The notes beneath the pieces are model-generated. The model had not been told where the DNA came from. It made no database searches and saw only the letters and a list, made by a program, of their open reading frames with translations. Made by a program: the position numbers and the translations under genes. From positions 1 through 48,916 of the forward strand of contig MU271257.1 in the NCBI GenBank assembly GCA_021432655.1: a DNA stretch of 48,916 nt. The letters are read 5' to 3'. How positions within the stretch are numbered: position 1 is the first letter of the stretch; each line of letters opens with the position of its first letter. Positions 29,647-47,510 of this stretch are shown here, in pieces. The stretch is from Atractiella rhizophila (Eukaryota).

Positions 29647-32600
29647 TCGTGAACAGGATCGCAAATGGGATTCTCTCCGTATTGAGTTGTAGCCTATGGC
29701 AGTCAAAAGACTGTATCCTCAACTCAGCTCAGAGTTAGCAGAAAGCGGTTCAGTTCGTCCGCAGGGCAGTTTCGAAGCTTTGAAGTGAGGAGGAACCAGC
29801 GAACTGGCGCTGCTTTATAAACCACCTTCCCAAGTCTTTTCGATCGTCACCCCTTCCAAACCGTCTTGCAAAGGAGTTCACCAGTCATGATTCACGTATC
29901 CTCTTGTCATTCACCTTCGTCGCCTCCAGATTTACACAAGCCTACACAGATGCTCGACAAAGACAAGCCTGTCTTTAAGCGAGCAACCAGAACTCTTAAA
30001 GCAGGAGGAGAGATCATCTTATTACCTTACACTAGACCAAACCGTTTTGGAGGAAGGAAGGCTACAAGCTGTGCTCAGTGCAGGTAAGCGATCAGCGTCG
30101 CTCAATCAGCAGAGGAAGACTCACAGCAGAATCGTACAGGCGGAGAAAGACGAAATGCAATCTCGAAGCTCCTTGTGCTACCTGTATCTCCAGAGGAGAT
30201 GCCGCGATTTGCAGTTTGGCACAAAAGCAAGCAGATAACTCATCAGCGTCTTCGGCGTAAGTTACTTCCATTTCCACTTTCGCATGAGGAGCTGAGTATG
30301 GACCTAGGACTTCTTCAGCGTCTCCCTCAGCTTCTTCAACCTCCGAATCCTTCGCTTCACACAACGACCAAGAAGCGCTCTCTCCATCCTCCTCTGCATC
30401 CACATCCAAATCAAATTTAGTCAGGAGTCCAGCGACCAAGGATGGTTTTACGTCGCTGTTGGAAGCAGTGAGAAGGGAATATACCATCGAGACCTCCAGC
30501 GCTGGAGAAACAATATCAAAAACAATCCTACGAGAAGCATGCTTTTCGGATGAAAAGACTCCAAGAACTGTGCGTCTCGTCATCTTTGTGAGGGATAGCC
30601 TGGGGTGACTTATCCTCTTGATCTCCCCTTTCTGCAGGGTCTGGACCTATTAGGAGCCCCGTCACTCCCATTTACCTCCCCGTCCCATTCTGCGGACCTT
30701 GAGACCATACTCTCCATTCTTCCTACACCAACTCAGGCTCCTCTTGCCATCTCCGCCTTCTACTCCTATGTGGACCCACTCTTACATCCACTCCACCGTC
30801 CGACGTTCTCTTCCCAAGTCGAAAAGTTCCTCAAAGTATCCAAAGAGCAAAGTGCTATGGAGTTCTGTGGCGACCTCACCTGGATCAGCTGCTTTCTAGC
30901 TATTTGCGGTCAAGGTTTATTGGCGTTATGCGAACGAGGGGAGAGGCTGGGAGAACAGGCAGGAGAGGGAATGATGACTTTAGAAGAACAAACATTGCTC
31001 GGGTTGAGCTGGATGGACGGCTCGATGAAGGCTCTGGTGATCGCAAGTAAGTCGAACTCTTTTTCACTTCTTCCTGCTCATGCTAACTGACTAAAACAGA
31101 CTTCTCCCTCGTTTCTACGCCACATGGATTGGCATCGTTGACCCTTCTCTTCGACTTCTGGCTTATGCGTTCGAATGGGAAACATATCCAAGCCGCGGAG
31201 ACCCTTCTCTCTCCAGCAGTTAGCCTGGCCATGGATCTCCAGCTGCATAACGACCCATGTTGCCTAACTGGACCACCGAAAACGGATTTAGAGTCCGAAG
31301 GACGACGACGACTCTTCTGGTCCATCTTTACTGTCGATGCGTGCGTTCATTCTTTGGTCATAGATCCTCGCTGAATGTATCCCCGTAAATGTAGAATCAT
31401 GGCTGCAGTCCTAGATCGTCCTTGGTCCATGTTCGACATGTCACGGACAACGACTTATCCTCCAGCAGAAGTAAATGATTGCGATTATTCACTTGCTGGC
31501 CAAATCCTCCCTCCCGGTCCAGGGTACATCGTCATGCATGGTGTTAACACACGCTCGGCTCTGGCTCTCGTCCTTCATAAGATGAGCACTGGTGTCTTTT
31601 CGAAGCCGAAGGTGACTATGGGAGAGATATTGAGCTTGAAGGAAGAGTTGGATCATATCGGGGAGCGACTGCGATTTGAGGAGGATGTAGAGTCACAGGG
31701 GGACATCGAGGCGACGATTACCAGGAAGGAAAATACCAGATTATGGAACTTCTCATATGTTCGGCTCTTGAGGTGTCTTTTCGAGCCTAAAAATGCAAAC
31801 ACTACGGCAAAAGAAGGGGCAACAGCACTCAAATCGCAATGTATAAGGCACGCCTGTACGTCTCCCTTATTTGTGCACTGTTTGGATACGCTTACATGAT
31901 ACGGTAATTAGTGCAGCTGGTTCAAAGCCATGAACCTCATTGTCAAGGCTTCCTTCAAACTTTTCTCTCCGTAAAGTATGTCTGATCTCTCCTATCCTCC
32001 TTACGCAATATCTCACCATTGGACTCACAGTGGAGCCATATGTCTTGTCATCGCACTGGAGCAAAACCTCTCAGGCATCGACTTTGACGCGTTAACGAGG
32101 GAGCTTTGGCACTTCGTAGATGCCCTAGGCCAGGATACGACAGGGTCAACTCTCCGACGAAAATCGTTCTTGTTCCTAAAATCGTGAACAGGATCGTAAA
32201 TGGGATTCTCTCCGTATTGAGTTGTAGCCTATGGCAAAAGACTGTATCCTCAACTCAGCTCAGAGTTAGCAGAAAGCGGTTCAGTTCGTCCGCAGGGCAG
32301 TTTCGAAGCTTTGAAGTGAGGAGGAACCAGCGAACTGGCGCTGCTTTATAAACCACCTTCCCAAGTCTTTTCGATCGTCACCCCTTCCAAACCGTCTTGC
32401 AAAGGAGTTCACCAGTCATGATTCACGTATCCTCTTGTCATTCACCTTCGTCGCCTCCAGATTTACACAAGCTTACACAGACGCTCGACAAAGACAAGCC
32501 TGTCTTTAAGCGAGCAACCAGAACGCTTAAAGCAGGAGGAGAGATCATCTTATTACCTTACACTCGACCAAACCGTTTTGGAGGAAGGAAGGCTACAAGC

Positions 32601-34712
32601 TGTGCCCAGTGCAGGTAAGCGATCAGCTTCGCTCAATCAGCAGAGGAAGACTCATAGCAGAATCGTGCAGGCGGAGAAAGACGAAATGCAATCTCGAAGC
32701 TCCTTGTGCTACCTGTATCTCCAGAGGAGATGCCGCAATTTGCAGTTTGGCACAAAAGCAAGCAGATAACTCATCAGCGTCTTCGGCGTAAGTTACTTCC
32801 ATTTCCACTTTCGCATGAGGAGCTGAGTATGGACCTAGGACTTCTTCAGCGTCTCCCTCAGCTTCTTCAACCTCCGAATCCTTCGCTTCACACAACGACC
32901 AAGAAGCGCTCTCTCCATCCTCCTCTGCATCCACATCCAAGTCAAATTTAGTCAGGAGTCCAGCGACCAAAGATGGTTTTACGTCGCTGTTGGAAGCAGT
33001 GAGAAGGGAATATACCATCGAGACCTCCAGCGCTGGAGAAACGATATCAAAAACAATCCTACGAGAAGCATGCTTTTCGGATGAAAAGACTCCAAGAACT
33101 GTGCGTCTCATCATCTTTGTGAGGGATAGCCTGGGGTGACTTATCCTCTTGATCTCCCCTTTCTGCAGGGTCTGGACCTATTAGGAGCCCCGTCACTCCC
33201 ATTTACCTCCCCGTCCCATTCTGCGGACCTTGAGACCATACTCTCCATTCTTCCTACACCAACTCAGGCTCCTCTTGCCATCTCCGCCTTCTACTCCTAT
33301 GTGGACCCACTCTTACATCCACTCCACCGTCCGACGTTCTCTTCCCAAGTCGAAAAGTTCCTCAAAGTATCCAAAGAGCAAAGTGCTATGGAGTTCTGTG
33401 GCGACCTCACCTGGATCAGCTGCTTTCTAGCTATTTGCGGTCAAGGTTTATTGGCGTTATGCGAACGAGGGGAGAGGCTGGGAGAACAGGCAGGAGAGGG
33501 AATGATGACTTTAGAAGAACAAACATTGCTCGGGCTGAGCTGGATGGACGGCTCGATGAAGGCTCTGGTGATCGCAAGTAAGTCGAACTCTTTTTCACTT
33601 CTTCCTGCTCATGCTAACTGACTAAAACAGACTTCTCCCTCGTTTCTACGCCACATGGATTGGCATCGTTGACCCTTCTCTTCGACTTCTGGCTTATGCG
33701 TTCGAATGGGAAACATATCCAAGCCGCGGAGACCCTTCTCTCTCCAGCAGTTAGCCTGGCCATGGATCTCCAGCTGCATAACGACCCATGTTGCCTAACT
33801 GGACCACCGAAAACGGATTTAGAGTCCGAAGGACGACGACGACTCTTCTGGTCCATCTTTACTGTCGATGCGTGCGTTCATTCTTTGGTCATAGATCCTC
33901 GCTGAATGTATCCCCGTAACTGTAGAATCATGGCTGCAGTCCTAGATCGTCCTTGGTCCATGTTCGACATGTCACGGACAACGACTTATCCTCCAGCAGA
34001 AGTAAATGATTGCGATTATTCACTTGCTGGCCAAATCCTCCCTCCCGGTCCAGGGTACATCGTCATGCATGGTGTTAACACACGCTCGGCTCTGGCTCTC
34101 GTCCTTCATAAGATGAGCACTGGTGTCTTTTCGAAGCCGAAGGTGACTATGGGAGAGATATTGAGCTTGAAGGAAGAGTTGGATCATATCGGGGAGCGAC
34201 TGCGATTTGAGGAGGATGTAGAGTCACAGGGGGACATCGAGGCGACGATTACCAGGAAGGAAAATACCAGATTATGGAACTTCTCATATGTTCGGCTCTT
34301 GAGGTGTCTTTTCGAGCCTAAAAATGCAAACACTACGGCAAAAGAAGGGGCAACAGCACTCAAATCGCAATGTATAAGGCACGCCTGTACGTCTCCCTTA
34401 TTTGTGCACTGTTTGGATACGCTTACATGATACGGTAATTAGTGCAGCTGGTTCAAAGCCATGAACCTCATTGTCAAGGCTTCCTTCAAACTTTTCTCTC
34501 CGTAAAGTATGTCTGATCTCTCCTATCCTCCTTACGCAATATCTCACCATTGGACTCACAGTGGAGCCATATGTCTTGTCATCGCACTGGAGCAAAACCT
34601 CTCAGGCATCGACTTTGACGCGTTAACGAGGGAGCTTTGGCACTTCGTAGATGCCCTAGGCCAGGATACGACAGGGTCAACTCTCCGACGAAAATCGTTC
34701 TTGTTCCTAAAA
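29647..34712 (+). repeat. ~2.53-kb tandem duplication (29647-32181 and 32182-34712), about 99% identical
   Basis: tcgtgaacaggatcg... restarts at 32182. About 16 substitutions and one 4-nt indel were counted by eye. Confidence 0.95.
29887..32187 (+). CDS. Zn(II)2Cys6 transcription factor with a fungal TF middle-homology region, copy 1 (C-terminally shortened)
   Basis: SCAQCR|RRKTKCNLEAPCATCISRGDAAICS; LHRPTF; AMDLQLHNDP...EGRRRLFWSIFTVD. TATAAA at ~29816. Ends FLKS* at the duplication junction. Confidence 0.85.
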
Positions 34713-38556: not shown

Positions 38557-39097
38557 GGATTAGTTTTTTCGCCTTTCTTTTCGTGTTTTTCGTGGCGTTT
38601 TTGACAAATGCTTGGAGAAATGTTTCCGTGAGATATTAGGGTGGTGGAAGGAGAGAGGCATAGCATATTATCTATTTGCAGAGTATTTGCAATTCTGTTT
38701 GATCTACATGTTGATGACTTGGGGCCGACTCGGGCTGGTGAATATTCAGCTGAGGAGGCGAAGCAGTTTATCGATATTGCGTATGCTTTGAGTAAGGATT
38801 GCTAGTAATATGCCAGGCCACAATTGTGAGAGGCTTTAAGTGCTGAACAGGCACAACTCAAGGCCGCTCAAAGTCTAGCGAGGTTAGGCTGCCAGTGATC
38901 CATTTGCAATTCAAGCAGCTAGCGGACGGAGACCGGAACCGCCCTCTCCTCGCAAGAAAAAAGTAAACGGACAGGAATTTTTTTCACAATTTCAGCACTC
39001 GTTCGCTAAGGACGATGGGGCTAGAAACTGTGAGTGTTTGCTCTACTGTAACACAGCTAGGCTGCGTTAGTGAGGTGCGAGGGAGTGAAGAAAGAAA

Positions 39098-39218
39098 GAG
39101 AGGAAAGTGATGAAAATATCGAAAGAATGAACAATCCAACGCCGATCTTCTGCCTCTCGTTTCTTGAAAGGAGAGAGCAGGGGAAGAGAGGACTGTCTAC
39201 ACTTGACCTGATTCTCTC
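39098..39218 (+). ncRNA. Box C/D RNA, dual guide: 25S rRNA helix 92 (yeast G2917-equivalent) and U2 snRNA A30
   Basis: C box GTGATGA 39107-39113; guide TGAACAATCCAACG plus D' CCGA 39142-39145; guide CTACACTTGA plus D box CTGA 39208-39211; terminal stem gagagga/ttctctc. Confidence 0.8.
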
Positions 39219-39417
39219 GCTTTTCTTTCTATGTACCAACATCGTGTTGCTCTCGGTTACTGACGTGTTCCTTTGGCTATAGAACACATTTTATTGAAAC
39301 TCATCATGGACATGTCAAAACAACCTAATACAAGATGAACGTAATTGGTACTGGACAAAGAAGCCGGTGAGTAGTTCATGTCATCTTCAGCACAAAGGAA
39401 AGAAAGGAAGTGTGAAT

Positions 39418-39528
39418 GAGGAGAGAACGAATGATGATTTTTCAAGATCAAAGCTCTAGAATTACCCTGATTCAATAAATGATGAGCAGATCTATCCTAA
39501 GTTTCAGCCTTGTCTGACTTCTCTCCTC
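39418..39528 (+). ncRNA. snR41: Box C/D snoRNA, snR41-like (18S Gm1126) with a second SNORD45-type guide (18S Am159, human numbering)
   Basis: C box ATGATGA 39431; AGCTCTAGAATTACC plus D' CTGA 39467; C' ATGATGA 39479; TAAGTTTCAGCCTTG plus D box CTGA 39514; perfect 10-bp terminal stem gaggagagaa/ttctctcctc. Confidence 0.9.
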
Positions 39529-39783
39529 TGCGTTCCTTTCTATTTCTTTCTATTCTTCTCTCCATCGAATGTGCGACTGATTGCGATTTGTGGTCCGGTC
39601 GTCAGCTTTGCTGTGGTTTTGTGGCCAAAGGTACATTGTCCTTGCAACACTTGCGGATGACGGTTCCCGTTTAGACAGCTTCCAGCTGGTCATCACTCAA
39701 GTACTCACGCCGACACTTCGGTGAGCTTCCTTCATTTTTGCTCTCGTAGTTGTGGATGGACGGGAGGGAAGGAAGGATATGAA

Positions 39784-39880
39784 GGAGAACAAGGATGATC
39801 CTAACCCGACGGGCGGACCGAAGTGACGTACAATCACTCTTTTATGTGGAAATCAATTTTAGTTGGGTATCTGAGTCTCC
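39784..39880 (+). ncRNA. snR70: Box C/D snoRNA, snR70-like (18S Cm1639)
   Basis: Variant C box AGGATGA 39792; CGACGGGCGG (complementary to 18S CCGCCCGUCG) plus D' CCGA 39818; D box CTGA 39871; stem ggaga/tctcc. Confidence 0.8.
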
Positions 39881-41417
39881 CTCATCCCTCCTCTCCTTCC
39901 GCTATCCACAACCTGCGAGGAGAGAGACAGTACGCTGATCGTTCGTTTCTTTGGTGACAGGTGCGGTTCGTGATGAGGTATGAATTATGAATCATGGGAT
40001 GTAGGTAGGTACCTCATTATGTATTTTAGTAGATAGCGTCGCGTAGATGGAATAGATCATCCGCTTGAAAAGCACCCTTCAAGGCAGAACCTTTGTTAGC
40101 CCGGATGACAGCTTTACTACCTCTTTCCCTGGCTCTGAAAGTTCGGTTGTAGGGCCTTTCCCGTTCTATGGTCCCTCTTATTCAACGACAGAGGAAGGAG
40201 AGTCGGCGTTATTTCAAACCTGCAGCCTTCCTAGTACTACTCTCTCTTCCGCATTCTTTCTCCGTCAGCATTACTTCTTTACTACTTTCATGATGATGAG
40301 GGTAGCTGGTTGGTTTGTTGACCTTCACCGCTATGATGTTTCGAGCCCGTATGGCGACCGACAATTAAAATGTTAGCATGGTCATGATGAACAATTTTAA
40401 TGAACGTTAATGAACACATCGCATCAATCATGTGGTATTCACCACGCCATTTCGTAAGCCAGCCAGCTCAAGAAAATCCTTCCTCACCTTTTTTCTCTTT
40501 CCCACCATGTTCTACTAGTAGTAGCAAGCCAGCTGTCCAGTCTCATCACTCCTTCACATGTCGATTTCTTGATTTATCATCCAGGATTCGGAGGTCTCTT
40601 TCGCAATTCGCATTGTAAAAAGTGCAGAAAAAGATGGCATATTGCATAGGTAAAAAGATATCGATACAAAGATAATCTGCTCCTGAATCTCGCAAAAACA
40701 AAAATGTGTAAGGATATCGAAGAGATGCGTCGAACCTGAACAAGTCTACAAGGACGAAGGAAAGACGATTGTTAACAGTGCAAGATCTATGAAAGGATGT
40801 TGGGGATGGGGTAAAGAATAACGAAATTCTCTATGTAGGTGTTGGTGGAGGTAACAGGCCCCAACGAAATATAGACCCGGCATGTTTTCTATCTGATGAA
40901 GTGTTGAAACGCATAAAAACGACATCTCTTGTTGAACGAACCAAGTGGTAGACAGAACAAAACACTGAAAAGAAGTTTCTCTTTGAATTCGAATAATGCT
41001 GCATGATTCTGATCCTTCGGCCTGATGTGCTGACCATCAATCGATGAAAGGCGTACACAAAAAACGAAGGAACGAAGGTGGATGGGAACTTGAAAAACAG
41101 TCTCTATGTGATTGGTTTGAATGCCCAAGAAACAAACGTCTGTAAATGAATTGATCAGAAATCACATCCACGCAGCCCAACCCAAATTCTCAACAGGACG
41201 GTAAAATCGCAAGAAAAACCCTTTTGTTCGTCATGTCTGTGCAACAGCCCACATTACGTCTAGATAATAACTAGTCCATTTACTTTTGCGAGAGAAATAA
41301 CGGAGGAGCAAATGAGAAAGTGATAAATAATTAAATGGAGCATCTAAAGTCGGAAATCGTGGCAGGATTGGTCGTAAGCGGTTCATGAACGAGATTGGAA
41401 GATTGACTTGATCGCGT

Positions 41418-43713
<2,296 letters not shown>

Positions 43714-44006: not shown

Positions 44007-47000
44007 ATGGCCACCGCTCGGTTAAAGCGTAAATTAGACGACTTAGATGTTGGGAACCTCAATGAGTCCTTCTGCGTGGTATGCTGTCTCTCTTGTCATT
44101 TCTTCGCTGATCTCAGTACCCCAGTATGGCACACCGCTGCCCTCTCTAGCAGACACGAAGAAGGATTCGAACGAGTTTGTACCAATATGGAAACAGGAGG
44201 TTAAGGACGAGAAAGGGAGGAGGAGGTTCCATGGTGCTTTCACCGGTGGATTCAGCGCAGGCTACTTCAATACGGTAGGGAGCGAAGAGGGTGCGTCTTG
44301 CCTTTAGGTATACGTCAAATGGTGACACTTGTGGACGCATAGGATGGGCGCCATCTACCTTCATATCCTCTCGACACAAGGAGAAGACCCAAGCACAACA
44401 GTCAACTTCTGAACTCGCTAGGTCATACATGGATGAAGAGGACTTAGCTGACCTCTCAGCCTCACGCACGCTGCAACAAACATCCACGTTCTCGACCTAC
44501 GATCCTCTGTCCGGCATAGGCGGACCCGCTCCTTCAACTAGTACCGTAGAAGGTGCCTTACACGACCTAATCCGTCCCGCCAAATCCAGCATTGGTCACG
44601 AATTGATGAAGAAGATGGGCTGGAGGGAGGGACAGGGAGTCGGGCCACGCGTCAGCCTTAAGCGTCGAAGGGAGCAAGCGGTTGAGTATGGAGTTGCGCG
44701 TGCGGAAGAAGGAGTTGAAGACGTGGAGATGGAGGAAGAGGATGCAGAGGGGAAGAAGAAAGGATTTGCGCCGCTCAATAGACCAGTCTTCAACTTCGAC
44801 GACATCGGAGTTGGGATGGAGCATGGACTTGGATGGGCGAAAGGCCAGAGTCTGGATCAGACCCTCGGACGGGATGACGAGAAGGTGGAGGAGATGAAGA
44901 GGAAGATGCCCGTTGGTGGTGCTTGGGGCTTAGGAGCTCTGGAGGACGCGGATATGGACGATGGAGATGTGTACGACGACGCTCCAGGGCTTTCAGGGCA
45001 GAAGGCAGGGATGATGATTGTGGAAGAAGACGATGAGCCGAGCATTGTCACGCTTTCCGGGTTAGATCGGAGGGAGAAGGAAGAAAGGCGTAAGAAGCAA
45101 AAGGAGAGGGAGAAACAACAGGTGAGCCTATGATGTGACGAAGCAATGAACTGATTTTACTTGTGTTCCAGGACCACAGGAAGAGGGAAGTGCTCAAGGA
45201 CGGGACGCAGATACTGAATGGATTCGTGCTCGCAAAACGTGTGGAGAAGCCAGATGTCTGGTATGTCTTTCTTTCTCTTCGTTGCAGAGATGCTGATCAT
45301 GACTTGGCAGGCCTGCTCCTCCTCCCGTACCAAAAGACTGGAAACCAAATCCTCAAGCCGTTTGGGACAGGGATCCGACTCGGAAGGCTGGGTTGGAGGA
45401 CAAGGAGAAAGACAAGGCTATGAACGACCCGAAGCGACCTGCGAACTTAACTGCCGATCAGGTGCGTTTCCTTCCCTTTCAAAAGATGATGAACGTCTTA
45501 AGTGTTCCTCCCAACACGGACAGCGCGGCGAGCTCTTTGGCGAACAAAAGCTTCCAGAGATGAAGAAGTCGGTGTTCGACTACATTTCTGCGGCTAATAA
45601 ATCTCGTATCGAGTCCCTCAAAACTGCTCATCAGAAAGGGATATTCTCCTCCGATACCTCACCATCCGAGCGCGTAATCATTCCAGAGATGGATCCTCAA
45701 ACCGCCTCTCTCGCTCTTAAAGGCTTCATCCCATATTCGGACGACAAGGCAAAACAGTCTCGCTACCTCCTCTATCTCCAGGTCATGTCTGGACTCCGTT
45801 CTCGCAGCGAGGTCTCCTTCGTACCTGTGACGAAAAAGGACGGTGTAAAACAGACTGTGGCTGAGCTGAATAAGGAGCTGGAGGACTTTGAACGCTCCGC
45901 CAAAGTGTTCAAACCGGCCACAGGAATGATGGCAAATCGATTTACAAGTGCGAAGGAGGTGATTATGCCCGGAGGTGGGACAGAGGAGAGCAAGGTAGGA
46001 CTGTATCAACCCACGGCGGAAGAAAGGCAGAGGGCAATCGAGAAGGCTGCGGAACCGGTACAGAGAATAGAGGAGGAGGAGACGCCGTTGCAGAACGCGG
46101 CGAGGATGGGGATGTGGGGTCCTCTCACGCGGGAGACGAAGGTCTTTTATCCCGATCGTCTGCTCTGCAAGAGGTTTGGCGTGGCGAATCCCCACCCCGA
46201 TGGTCCTGTCGCGGAACCTGAGGAGCGAACGAGCAAATTGGACGAGATGTTGATGGAGAAGGGATATCGACCGATGCCGAAGGAGGAAAAGGGAGCACCC
46301 CTTGCGAATGTCTCTGCAGAAGCGTTCCCGGTAGCGAAGACGGGAGAGAGGAGGACTTTAGCGAATGTTGGACTGGGAGAGGACGAGACTCAGGGAGCGA
46401 ATACCTTGACTTACGAACGACCGAGTATGGATATCTTCAAGGCCATATTTGCAGATAGCGAAGACGAGGATGAGGACGACGAGAAGGAGAACTCACCAAC
46501 TCCACTGGTTGCGGATAGGGAGTTCAAGAGTCAAGTCAACGATCTACTTCAAAGCGAGGCACAGAAATCTCAGCCGTTGGTCAAGTCCACAGTTCTCACA
46601 CTTGCCGATGCTACTAAACCCGAAGCCGATGTTCAGCCTGGTAACGAAGATATCACTGTAGTTGAACCGCTCAATTTTCGACCGACATTCGTTTCTCGGA
46701 AGCAGCGCAACGAATCAACTGGCGGTGCGGAGGAAGCTGCACAAGATAAGAAGAAGAAGAAGAAGAAGAAAGCCGTACTTTCTTTTGACGTTGAGGATGG
46801 AGAAGATGTGGGACCTTCTCTCAACTTGAAGAAGATGGATAAGAAGGATAAGAAGCGGAAGAAAGGCGGAGGAGAGGATGAACACCGGAAGAAGAAACGT
46901 AGGAAGGAGGAAGAGGAAGATGAGGAATGGGTGGAAAAGGAAGTGCAGGTACCTTCCGTCGTTGGAACCTTCCCCAGAAGGACCATGAAAATGTTGTTGC

Positions 47001-47037
47001 TGGTCGTAGAATGCGTGCAATCGACCTCATGGATTGA
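44007..47037 (+). CDS. GPATCH1: G-patch domain-containing protein 1 (GPATCH1/DUF1604 family splicing factor)
   Basis: [36 protein letters not shown]-patch [52 protein letters not shown]. The probable end is RMRAIDLMD*. Confidence 0.92.
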
Positions 47038-47510
47038 TTTCAGAATCGCATGCGACTTTTGGCAAGATGGAAGATTAAGCAAATCTGATTGCTTGTTGTC
47101 CATTGCACAACCCACTCACTGACAAACTGATCACAACATCAGAGCAGAGAAAGCTATAATTTATGTTTATGGGAGCCCATGGCGATGAGAAGGTACTCAG
47201 AAACAAGAAGCCGAAATTCCAAGAAGCAAACGGGGTGTAAAAGAATGGTCTGTGTATTAAAAGGAGCGCGTAAATAGAATGAGGCGATTATTCTGAAGCG
47301 AGAATATTTACGACAGAAGGAAGAGTAATCCAAAACGAGACAAGTCTGAGAAGCAGACAAATGAGTGAAAGAGGTCCATATTATGGCAAGTGGAATTATT
47401 AAAGAGAGGTAGGTATTCGCAGTCAAGCAGTAACAGTGGCTTAGAGAGTATAGGGCTTAGTCCGACAACAACACAGGAGAATTAGTGGGATTGAGAATAA
47501 GTATCGAGGC

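Follow-up and report, generated by a model that had tools for sequence, protein, structure and literature searches.

The DNA analysed here (48,916 nt, called the window in its full length) encodes on the plus strand a spliced and polyadenylated transcript with four exons (38969–39029, 39283–39366, 39606–39720, and 39961–40074; poly(A) tail after 40074). This structure is read from contigs of sequencing run X3, which originate from a close relative and act as cDNA: they contain GT..AG splice joints (39029>39283, 39366>39606, and 39720>39961) and a loose A end at 40074. The joint 39366>39606 is also spliced in runs X4 and X11, which come from two other organisms. The spliced transcript is 374 nt long, its longest reading frame comprises 28 codons, and each of its three introns carries a box C/D RNA. 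The candidate of primary interest resides in intron 1 (39030–39282, plus strand, 253 nt, GT..AG), the removal of which is documented by the joint 39029>39283 in X3 contigs. A branch-like CTGAC occurs in this intron at 39260, approximately 45 nt past the snoRNA. An unspliced X3 contig spanning 38978–39312 shows no listed difference from the window within 39098–39218, as against four within 38978–39041. The candidate locus is covered by this one near-identical relative only, in the form of contigs, which show neither RNA ends nor RNA level; runs X4, X11, and X16 provide no coverage of intron 1, and small shares in soil and rhizosphere runs do not enter the analysis. The candidate has the same orientation as the spliced intron that contains it, as is characteristic of intron-encoded snoRNAs, and this setting in a host transcript with several snoRNAs makes it a credible snoRNA gene.

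The candidate occupies positions 39098–39218 of the plus strand, where boxes, stem, and two guides can be read in the order of a full box C/D unit. It is closed by a terminal stem of seven base pairs, one of them G-U, between GAGAGGA (39098–39104) and TTCTCTC (39212–39218). Within this stem follow a C box GTGATGA (39107–39113) that aligns with the C boxes of the Rfam families Afu_191, snoU2-30, and SNORD69; the 14-nt D' guide TGAACAATCCAACG (39128–39141), antisense to the 25S/26S rRNA strand leading into the A loop; a D' box variant CCGA (39142–39145) that abuts this guide; an internal hairpin (39146–39184) at the same position as a hairpin in homologues; a degenerate C'-like box AGAGGA (39187–39192), assigned by positional alignment with the motif ATGnnGA of homologues; the 10-nt D guide CTACACTTGA (39197–39206), antisense to U2 snRNA; and, after one unpaired C, the D box CTGA (39208–39211). 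All of these elements are on the plus strand. The unit has the hallmarks of the class, namely a 5'-proximal RUGAUGA and a 3'-proximal CUGA that are joined by a short terminal stem. The internal boxes are degenerate in that CCGA and AGAGGA take the place of CUGA and UGAUGA, with the GA dinucleotides retained. The ends of the unit are embedded in a plus-strand inverted repeat (span 39093–39230) with a purine-rich and a pyrimidine-rich arm of 18 nt each (39093–39110 and 39213–39230), which are 72% complementary and form a duplex with a calculated energy of −20.8 kcal/mol.

In box C/D RNAs, the target nucleotide held in the active site is the one opposite the guide's fifth position, counted upstream from the D or D' box. 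Both guides comprise at least 10 nt upstream of their box and can be read by this rule: five nucleotides before CCGA, a C faces the first G of a GG in the 25S string, and at the same distance before CTGA, a U faces the second A of UCAAGUGUAG. An initial annotation of this DNA had proposed a two-guide box C/D RNA with a long hairpin after D'. Reading the sequence anew, we found its coordinates, strings, and fifth-nucleotide arithmetic to be correct and the hairpin to be present.

Both guide strings are found a single time in the window; the chance expectation from shuffled sequences, at two or fewer mismatches, is 0.62 and 0.38, so that neither string is significant alone. The internal hairpin folds with −21.2 kcal/mol (z = −1.48), and since 17 of 200 shuffled sequences fold equally well it is not significant by itself. 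The same applies to the unit with its flanks (39080–39240; z = −1.22, matched by 24/200 shuffles). Because this DNA is of low-complexity purine/pyrimidine composition, the fold-significance test is uninformative here. The case for a snoRNA is made instead by the way in which boxes, stem, and the two guides come together, along with the intronic setting and the identity with published guides. On these grounds we consider it highly probable that the candidate is a real box C/D snoRNA.

A search of the whole window against Rfam at gathering thresholds returned no match, and neither rRNA nor U2 is encoded within it. The three best snoRNA matches, all below gathering, each share one guide with the candidate, and none shares both. 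One of them, SNORD69 (RF00574), aligns with the 5' half (16.5 bits; gathering 37) such that guide core and box fall in the same register. SNORD69 guides modification of 28S-G4464, a highly conserved site, and its activity has been verified in a yeast cell system (Deryusheva 2019). The corresponding guide in Neurospora crassa is the D' guide of CD17 (26S-Gm2875), for which snoR34 of Arabidopsis thaliana and human HBII-210 are listed as homologues; Additional file 4 of the same article depicts this guide in a duplex with 26S 5'-GUUGGAUUGUUC-3' (Liu 2009). The D' guide in the window pairs with GUUGGAUUGUUC as drawn there, and with one additional nucleotide on each side if the 14-nt 25S string given by the initial annotation holds. 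In the A-loop-helix strand, the nucleotide that it positions fifth is the first G of the GG, and the same holds for the SNORD69 consensus and, in that drawing, for CD17 D'.

This agreement in register bears out the earlier assignment of the D' guide to the SNORD69-site G. The comparison with the published drawings supports the assignment of this guide to the site known from SNORD69 and from N. crassa 26S-Gm2875, within the A-loop helix. The target G is presumably equivalent to yeast G2917, as judged from an N. crassa–yeast offset of 42 at the snR71, snR69, and snR73 sites. By our own arithmetic, which assumes an rRNA set of approximately 5.5 kb, a perfect 14-nt match to that set would arise by chance with a probability of the order of 2e-5. 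From the sequence, we would rather expect the 25S guide to be active than not. We considered and rejected 5.8S rRNA as the target of the D' guide, the string in the window being unlike the 5.8S guides of the metagenomic groups A and C described below. For both guides, target complementarity is argued from conservation, with the 25S and U2 strings of the species taken as conserved.

The D guide and the D box are letter-for-letter those of the Rfam families Afu_191 and snoU2-30, as seen in the alignments from a narrow Rfam scan. Afu_191 is the best Rfam match of the locus (22.0 bits; gathering 60). Both it and snoU2-30 (RF00493; 16.5 bits, gathering 60) align with the locus end to end, the latter through boxes and guide only. 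The target entry for Afu-191 reads 'Gm75 in 5.8S and Am32 in U2 snRNA' (Joechl 2008, Table 1). In N. crassa, CD29 combines a D guide that pairs with U2 5'-AUCAAGUGUAGU-3' for U2-Am31 with a D' guide for 5.8S-Am42, and primer-extension stops support both methylations; the same passages describe cognates in other filamentous fungi as having the U2 guide only, relate this element to human SCARNA9, and list the latter as the human counterpart (Liu 2009). The 10-nt D guide of the candidate is contained in the D guide of CD29 as drawn, with the fifth nucleotide on the same A. The earlier claim that the D guide addresses the U2 A30-type site is substantiated by this identity with snoU2-30, Afu-191, and part of CD29. 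Judged by the guide strings as published, the data support the assignment of the D guide to the U2 site of SCARNA9, CD29, and Afu-191; likewise supported is the equivalence of its target A with N. crassa U2-A31, A. fumigatus A32, and vertebrate A30. The predicted duplex with U2 has only 10 base pairs, and beside the D box a C is mismatched with an A of the published U2 string. On the strength of the guide string, we predict that the U2 guide is likely to be active.

Among the closest known counterparts is Afu-191 of Aspergillus fumigatus (RF01499; AM921920; family CD_35 of Canzler 2018). Like the candidate, it carries an rRNA guide at D' and, by its tabulated targets, the same U2 guide at D, in the order C, D' guide, D', hairpin, C', D guide, D. 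In contrast to the candidate, which has a 25S guide at D', Afu-191 is listed as targeting 5.8S-Gm75 from this position. The candidate carries the guide for U2 Am32 as tabulated, and remains below the Afu_191 gathering score (22.0 versus 60 bits). N. crassa CD29 is likewise described as intron-encoded, with a U2 guide at D and an rRNA guide at D'; it differs in that its D' guide, as published for 5.8S-Am42, is unlike the string at 39128–39141, and in the length of the D guide, which is 12 nt as drawn in Additional file 4, compared to 10 nt in the candidate; Table 1 enters the match of CD29 as 16/0 (Liu 2009). CD17, SNORD69, and snoR34 address the G that the candidate addresses, in an identical register (26S-Gm2875, 28S-G4464), to the extent that the published figures show it. 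Unlike the candidate, in which the partner is a U2 guide, CD17 pairs this element with an 18S-Am154 guide in the same article. The candidate stays below the SNORD69 gathering score (16.5 versus 37 bits), and the 18S partner guide is found in the neighbouring snoRNA at 39427–39519. Finally, the U2 guide of snoU2-30 and of vertebrate SCARNA9 (mgU2-19/30) is the same as far as the source entries give it, in snoU2-30 including the C before CUGA. The snoU2-30 model has 70 positions, of which cmscan leaves 35 unshown between C box and D guide; the candidate has 80 nt there, including a second guide.

The initial annotation had called this RNA a hybrid sno/scaRNA. The specific pairing of a 25S with a U2 guide is indeed unreported in the literature searched, which for Canzler 2018 means the main account. 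The class as such is known: fungal box C/D RNAs with an rRNA guide and a U2 guide, namely Afu-191 and CD29, have been in print since 2008–2009 (Joechl 2008, Liu 2009). Both sites already have published fungal guides; within what was searched, the target combination alone is new, and no new kind of system is opened. For U2-guide snoRNAs of basidiomycetes, nothing relevant was found in the same literature. According to the main account, CD_17 and CD_35 are assigned to Pezizomycotina, and CD_29 is recorded for Glomerellales and Neurospora (Canzler 2018). If the window is of basidiomycete origin, box C/D RNAs with a U2 guide extend beyond the lineage given there for the corresponding families. Such an origin is weakly suggested by one unexplained reading frame, for which the nearest Atlas clusters score 0.91–0.93 and have few members of known phylum.

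Relatives were also sought in a collection of metagenomic sequences. No contig of this collection matched a pattern that combines the two guides in a single RNA (core of the D' guide, gap of 36–66 nt, D guide, D box). The pattern of C-box core, gap, U2 guide, and D box was found at 107 loci (108 matches, 89 distinct sequences), compared to a chance expectation of approximately 14 by our own arithmetic with an assumed collection size. Among the distinct sequences, 31 carry a 5.8S guide of the Afu-191 type in the D' region (group A). Another 16 (group B: L004, L012, L013, L014, L018, L021, L046, L051, L054, L076, L082, L085, L086, L087, L090, and L100) are characterized by a strong terminal stem (GCGATA/TATCGC), by a C before CTGA as in the window, and by a conserved D' region that contains ATAGATATC. 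A smaller group C consists of eight sequences picked by a CD29-type motif, including L063, which was later judged to be misassigned. The remaining 34 include evident chance matches and plant-like tandem arrays (L042, L064, and L077), in which very short units of C box, U2 guide, and D box resemble the snoU2-30 clusters of plant type.

The A-loop-helix guide is absent from all 108 matches to the U2-guide pattern. The 10-nt core of the D' guide was found in two of the 107 loci (L013 and L060), well away from the snoRNA. In L013 it is approximately 900 nt off in an apparent protein-coding exon and was rejected as chance; the occurrence in L060, the snoRNA string of which is identical to that of L013, was rejected likewise. 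The snoRNA of L013 lies just downstream of a gene for a TPR protein. Groups A and B have in common the order D' box, hairpin, ATGnnGA, spacer, and guide. The D' boxes among the metagenomic homologues read CCGA, CGGA, or CCAA, with CCGA in L026 and L069 and also, by our reading, in members of group B such as L004. Because these variants occur in homologues, the degenerate D' box of the window is within the range of the family.

We built a sequence model, R1, from 54 of the 89 distinct sequences; these make up groups A, B, and C, with L063 and the 34 unclassified sequences left out. RNAalifold found no consensus pair in these sequences. R1 scores the window at 22.0 bits; pattern matches that align at the guide end alone score between 14.5 and 17.8 bits, and one full-length match, which on visual inspection we did not take for a snoRNA, reached 18.8 bits. 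The match to the window is partly circular because the model was chosen on the same motifs as the window. Matches with no more than the selected motifs in common score only a few bits lower, and we rejected the result as proof of orthology. The window and its metagenomic relatives have their layout and their predicted function in common; from these sequences, kinship beyond the boxes and the guide is not demonstrated.

The best explanation overall, to which we assign a probability of roughly 0.6, is an intron-encoded box C/D snoRNA that guides modification of both a G in 25S rRNA and an A in U2. Such an RNA of approximately 115–121 nt would be freed from intron 1 of a noncoding, spliced, and polyadenylated host by splicing and debranching, followed by trimming back to the terminal stem, a step in which pairing between the purine-rich and pyrimidine-rich flanks may help. 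A standard snoRNP would then form, with Snu13, Nop58/Nop56, and two copies of Nop1/fibrillarin assembling on the C/D and C'/D' motifs. In this particle, the 14-nt D' guide would pair with the 25S strand leading into the A loop and direct 2'-O-methylation of the residue equivalent to N. crassa 26S-G2875 and human 28S-G4464. The 10-nt D guide would pair with U2 from immediately 5' of the branch-point-recognition sequence into that sequence, placing the A30-type A in the active site. We infer the mature RNA, its assembly into a snoRNP, both methylations, and the target strings in the 25S and U2 of this species. The model makes two predictions: a 2'-O-methyl G in the A-loop helix and a 2'-O-methyl A beside the branch-point-recognition sequence of U2. 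To our knowledge, S. cerevisiae is without both methyl marks.

Several other readings account for part of these observations. A real snoRNA could function only through its D guide toward U2 if the C'/D' motif were too degenerate to accommodate a second fibrillarin, leaving the 25S complementarity as a relic or inactive. The boxes CCGA and AGAGGA, which are not CUGA and UGAUGA, are in line with this idea, and so are the U2-only cognates of CD29 in other filamentous fungi, to the extent that the article describes them (Liu 2009), and the failure of the metagenome scan to find another sequence with both guides. However, a relic is not expected to keep 14 perfect pairs in the exact register of SNORD69 and of CD17 as published, and homologues with conserved 5.8S guides also make use of CCGA, CGGA, or CCAA at D'. 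We consider exclusive use of the U2 guide unlikely. The converse, a real snoRNA that makes use of its 25S guide only, appears improbable. A U2 duplex of 10 base pairs with a C opposite an A beside the D box might be too short, but the same 10-nt guide with a C before CTGA is the consensus of snoU2-30 in Rfam and is kept in the 16 distinct sequences of group B, and its conservation over 107 loci argues for use.

It is also conceivable that the D' element pairs with the A-loop helix of pre-25S rRNA as a folding chaperone without methylation. The duplex, drawn on the published 26S strand, would cover the A-loop nucleotides themselves, and a degenerate C'/D' motif would suit such a role; SNORD69, however, uses the same register for methylation (Deryusheva 2019), and we rate a pure chaperone as very improbable. 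Still less credible is the absence of any RNA gene, with short motifs juxtaposed by chance in a purine-rich intron. Single motifs that are not significant in the window, weak z-scores of folding, and the lack of an Rfam match at gathering in the window would be compatible with this view. Against it stand the correct order and spacing of the elements within a spliced intron, the box C/D RNAs in the other two introns of the transcript, and the identity of both guides with published ones.

A second box C/D snoRNA is located in intron 2 at 39427–39519 (plus strand). Its best Rfam match is Afu_455 (38.8 bits, gathering 48, E = 3.6e-4), followed by snR77 and then snR41. The string and box with which the D' guide of this RNA ends are also those of the N. 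crassa CD17 D guide (18S-Am154, U45-type), and its D guide is that of N. crassa CD9 (18S-Gm1122), both as given in the published guide listings. The intron at 39721–39960 contains a third box C/D-like candidate at about 39795–39877 (plus strand) with a C box AGGATGA and a D box CTGA. Its flanking complementary arms are long (duplex energy −38.7 kcal/mol), and no Rfam family matches it even at E-values up to 10. A possible homology of this third RNA to N. crassa CD40 was rejected on the grounds that the guide differs from the published one. All three snoRNAs are bracketed by pairing arms, purine-rich on the 5' side and pyrimidine-rich on the 3' side (39093–39230, 39389–39559, and 39754–39900), which may serve as processing stems.

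Two guides that are kept together in N. crassa CD17, as published, here occupy adjacent introns, where their partners are a U2 guide and a snR41-type guide, respectively. Next to the U2 guide, the D' slot contains a guide for 5.8S-G75 (Aspergillus-type), for 5.8S-A42 (Neurospora-type), another guide in one metagenomic group, or the A-loop-helix guide in the window, if the fungal target assignments are taken as tabulated. The initial annotation had understood the candidate as linking modification of ribosome and spliceosome. We do not retain this notion of functional coupling: because the homologues carry different D' guides, a free D' slot is indicated rather than coupling. The candidate and its neighbour at 39427–39519 would illustrate the re-partnering of guide modules among snoRNAs in evolution.

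These comparisons suggest a broader scenario, in which the U2 guide is an ancient fixed module, the D' slot is free and has been refilled by lineage, and the two CD17 guides have been split and re-partnered. We offer this scenario tentatively, at somewhat less than even odds. If true, it would document a specific instance in which neighbouring snoRNAs of a single host gene have re-assorted their guides and, in a probable basidiomycete, provide the first guide of the U2-A30 type described outside Pezizomycotina among fungi.

A weak match to snR67 (40889–40988, plus strand, 15.4 bits, E = 6.9) lies beyond the poly(A) site of the host transcript and is probably due to chance. Further downstream, the minus strand contains a reading frame for a DEAD-box helicase (41539–43119) with DEAD and Helicase_C domains. 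On the plus strand, a frame of 634 codons (45218–47122) gave no match in Pfam; the nearest Atlas clusters carry HTH_TGH and G-patch families. Upstream of the host transcript, the window includes a tandem duplication (29704–34430) with a period of 2531 nt, in which three reading frames recur at this spacing and a 300-nt segment (29704–30003) is found again at 32235–32534 with 99% identity.
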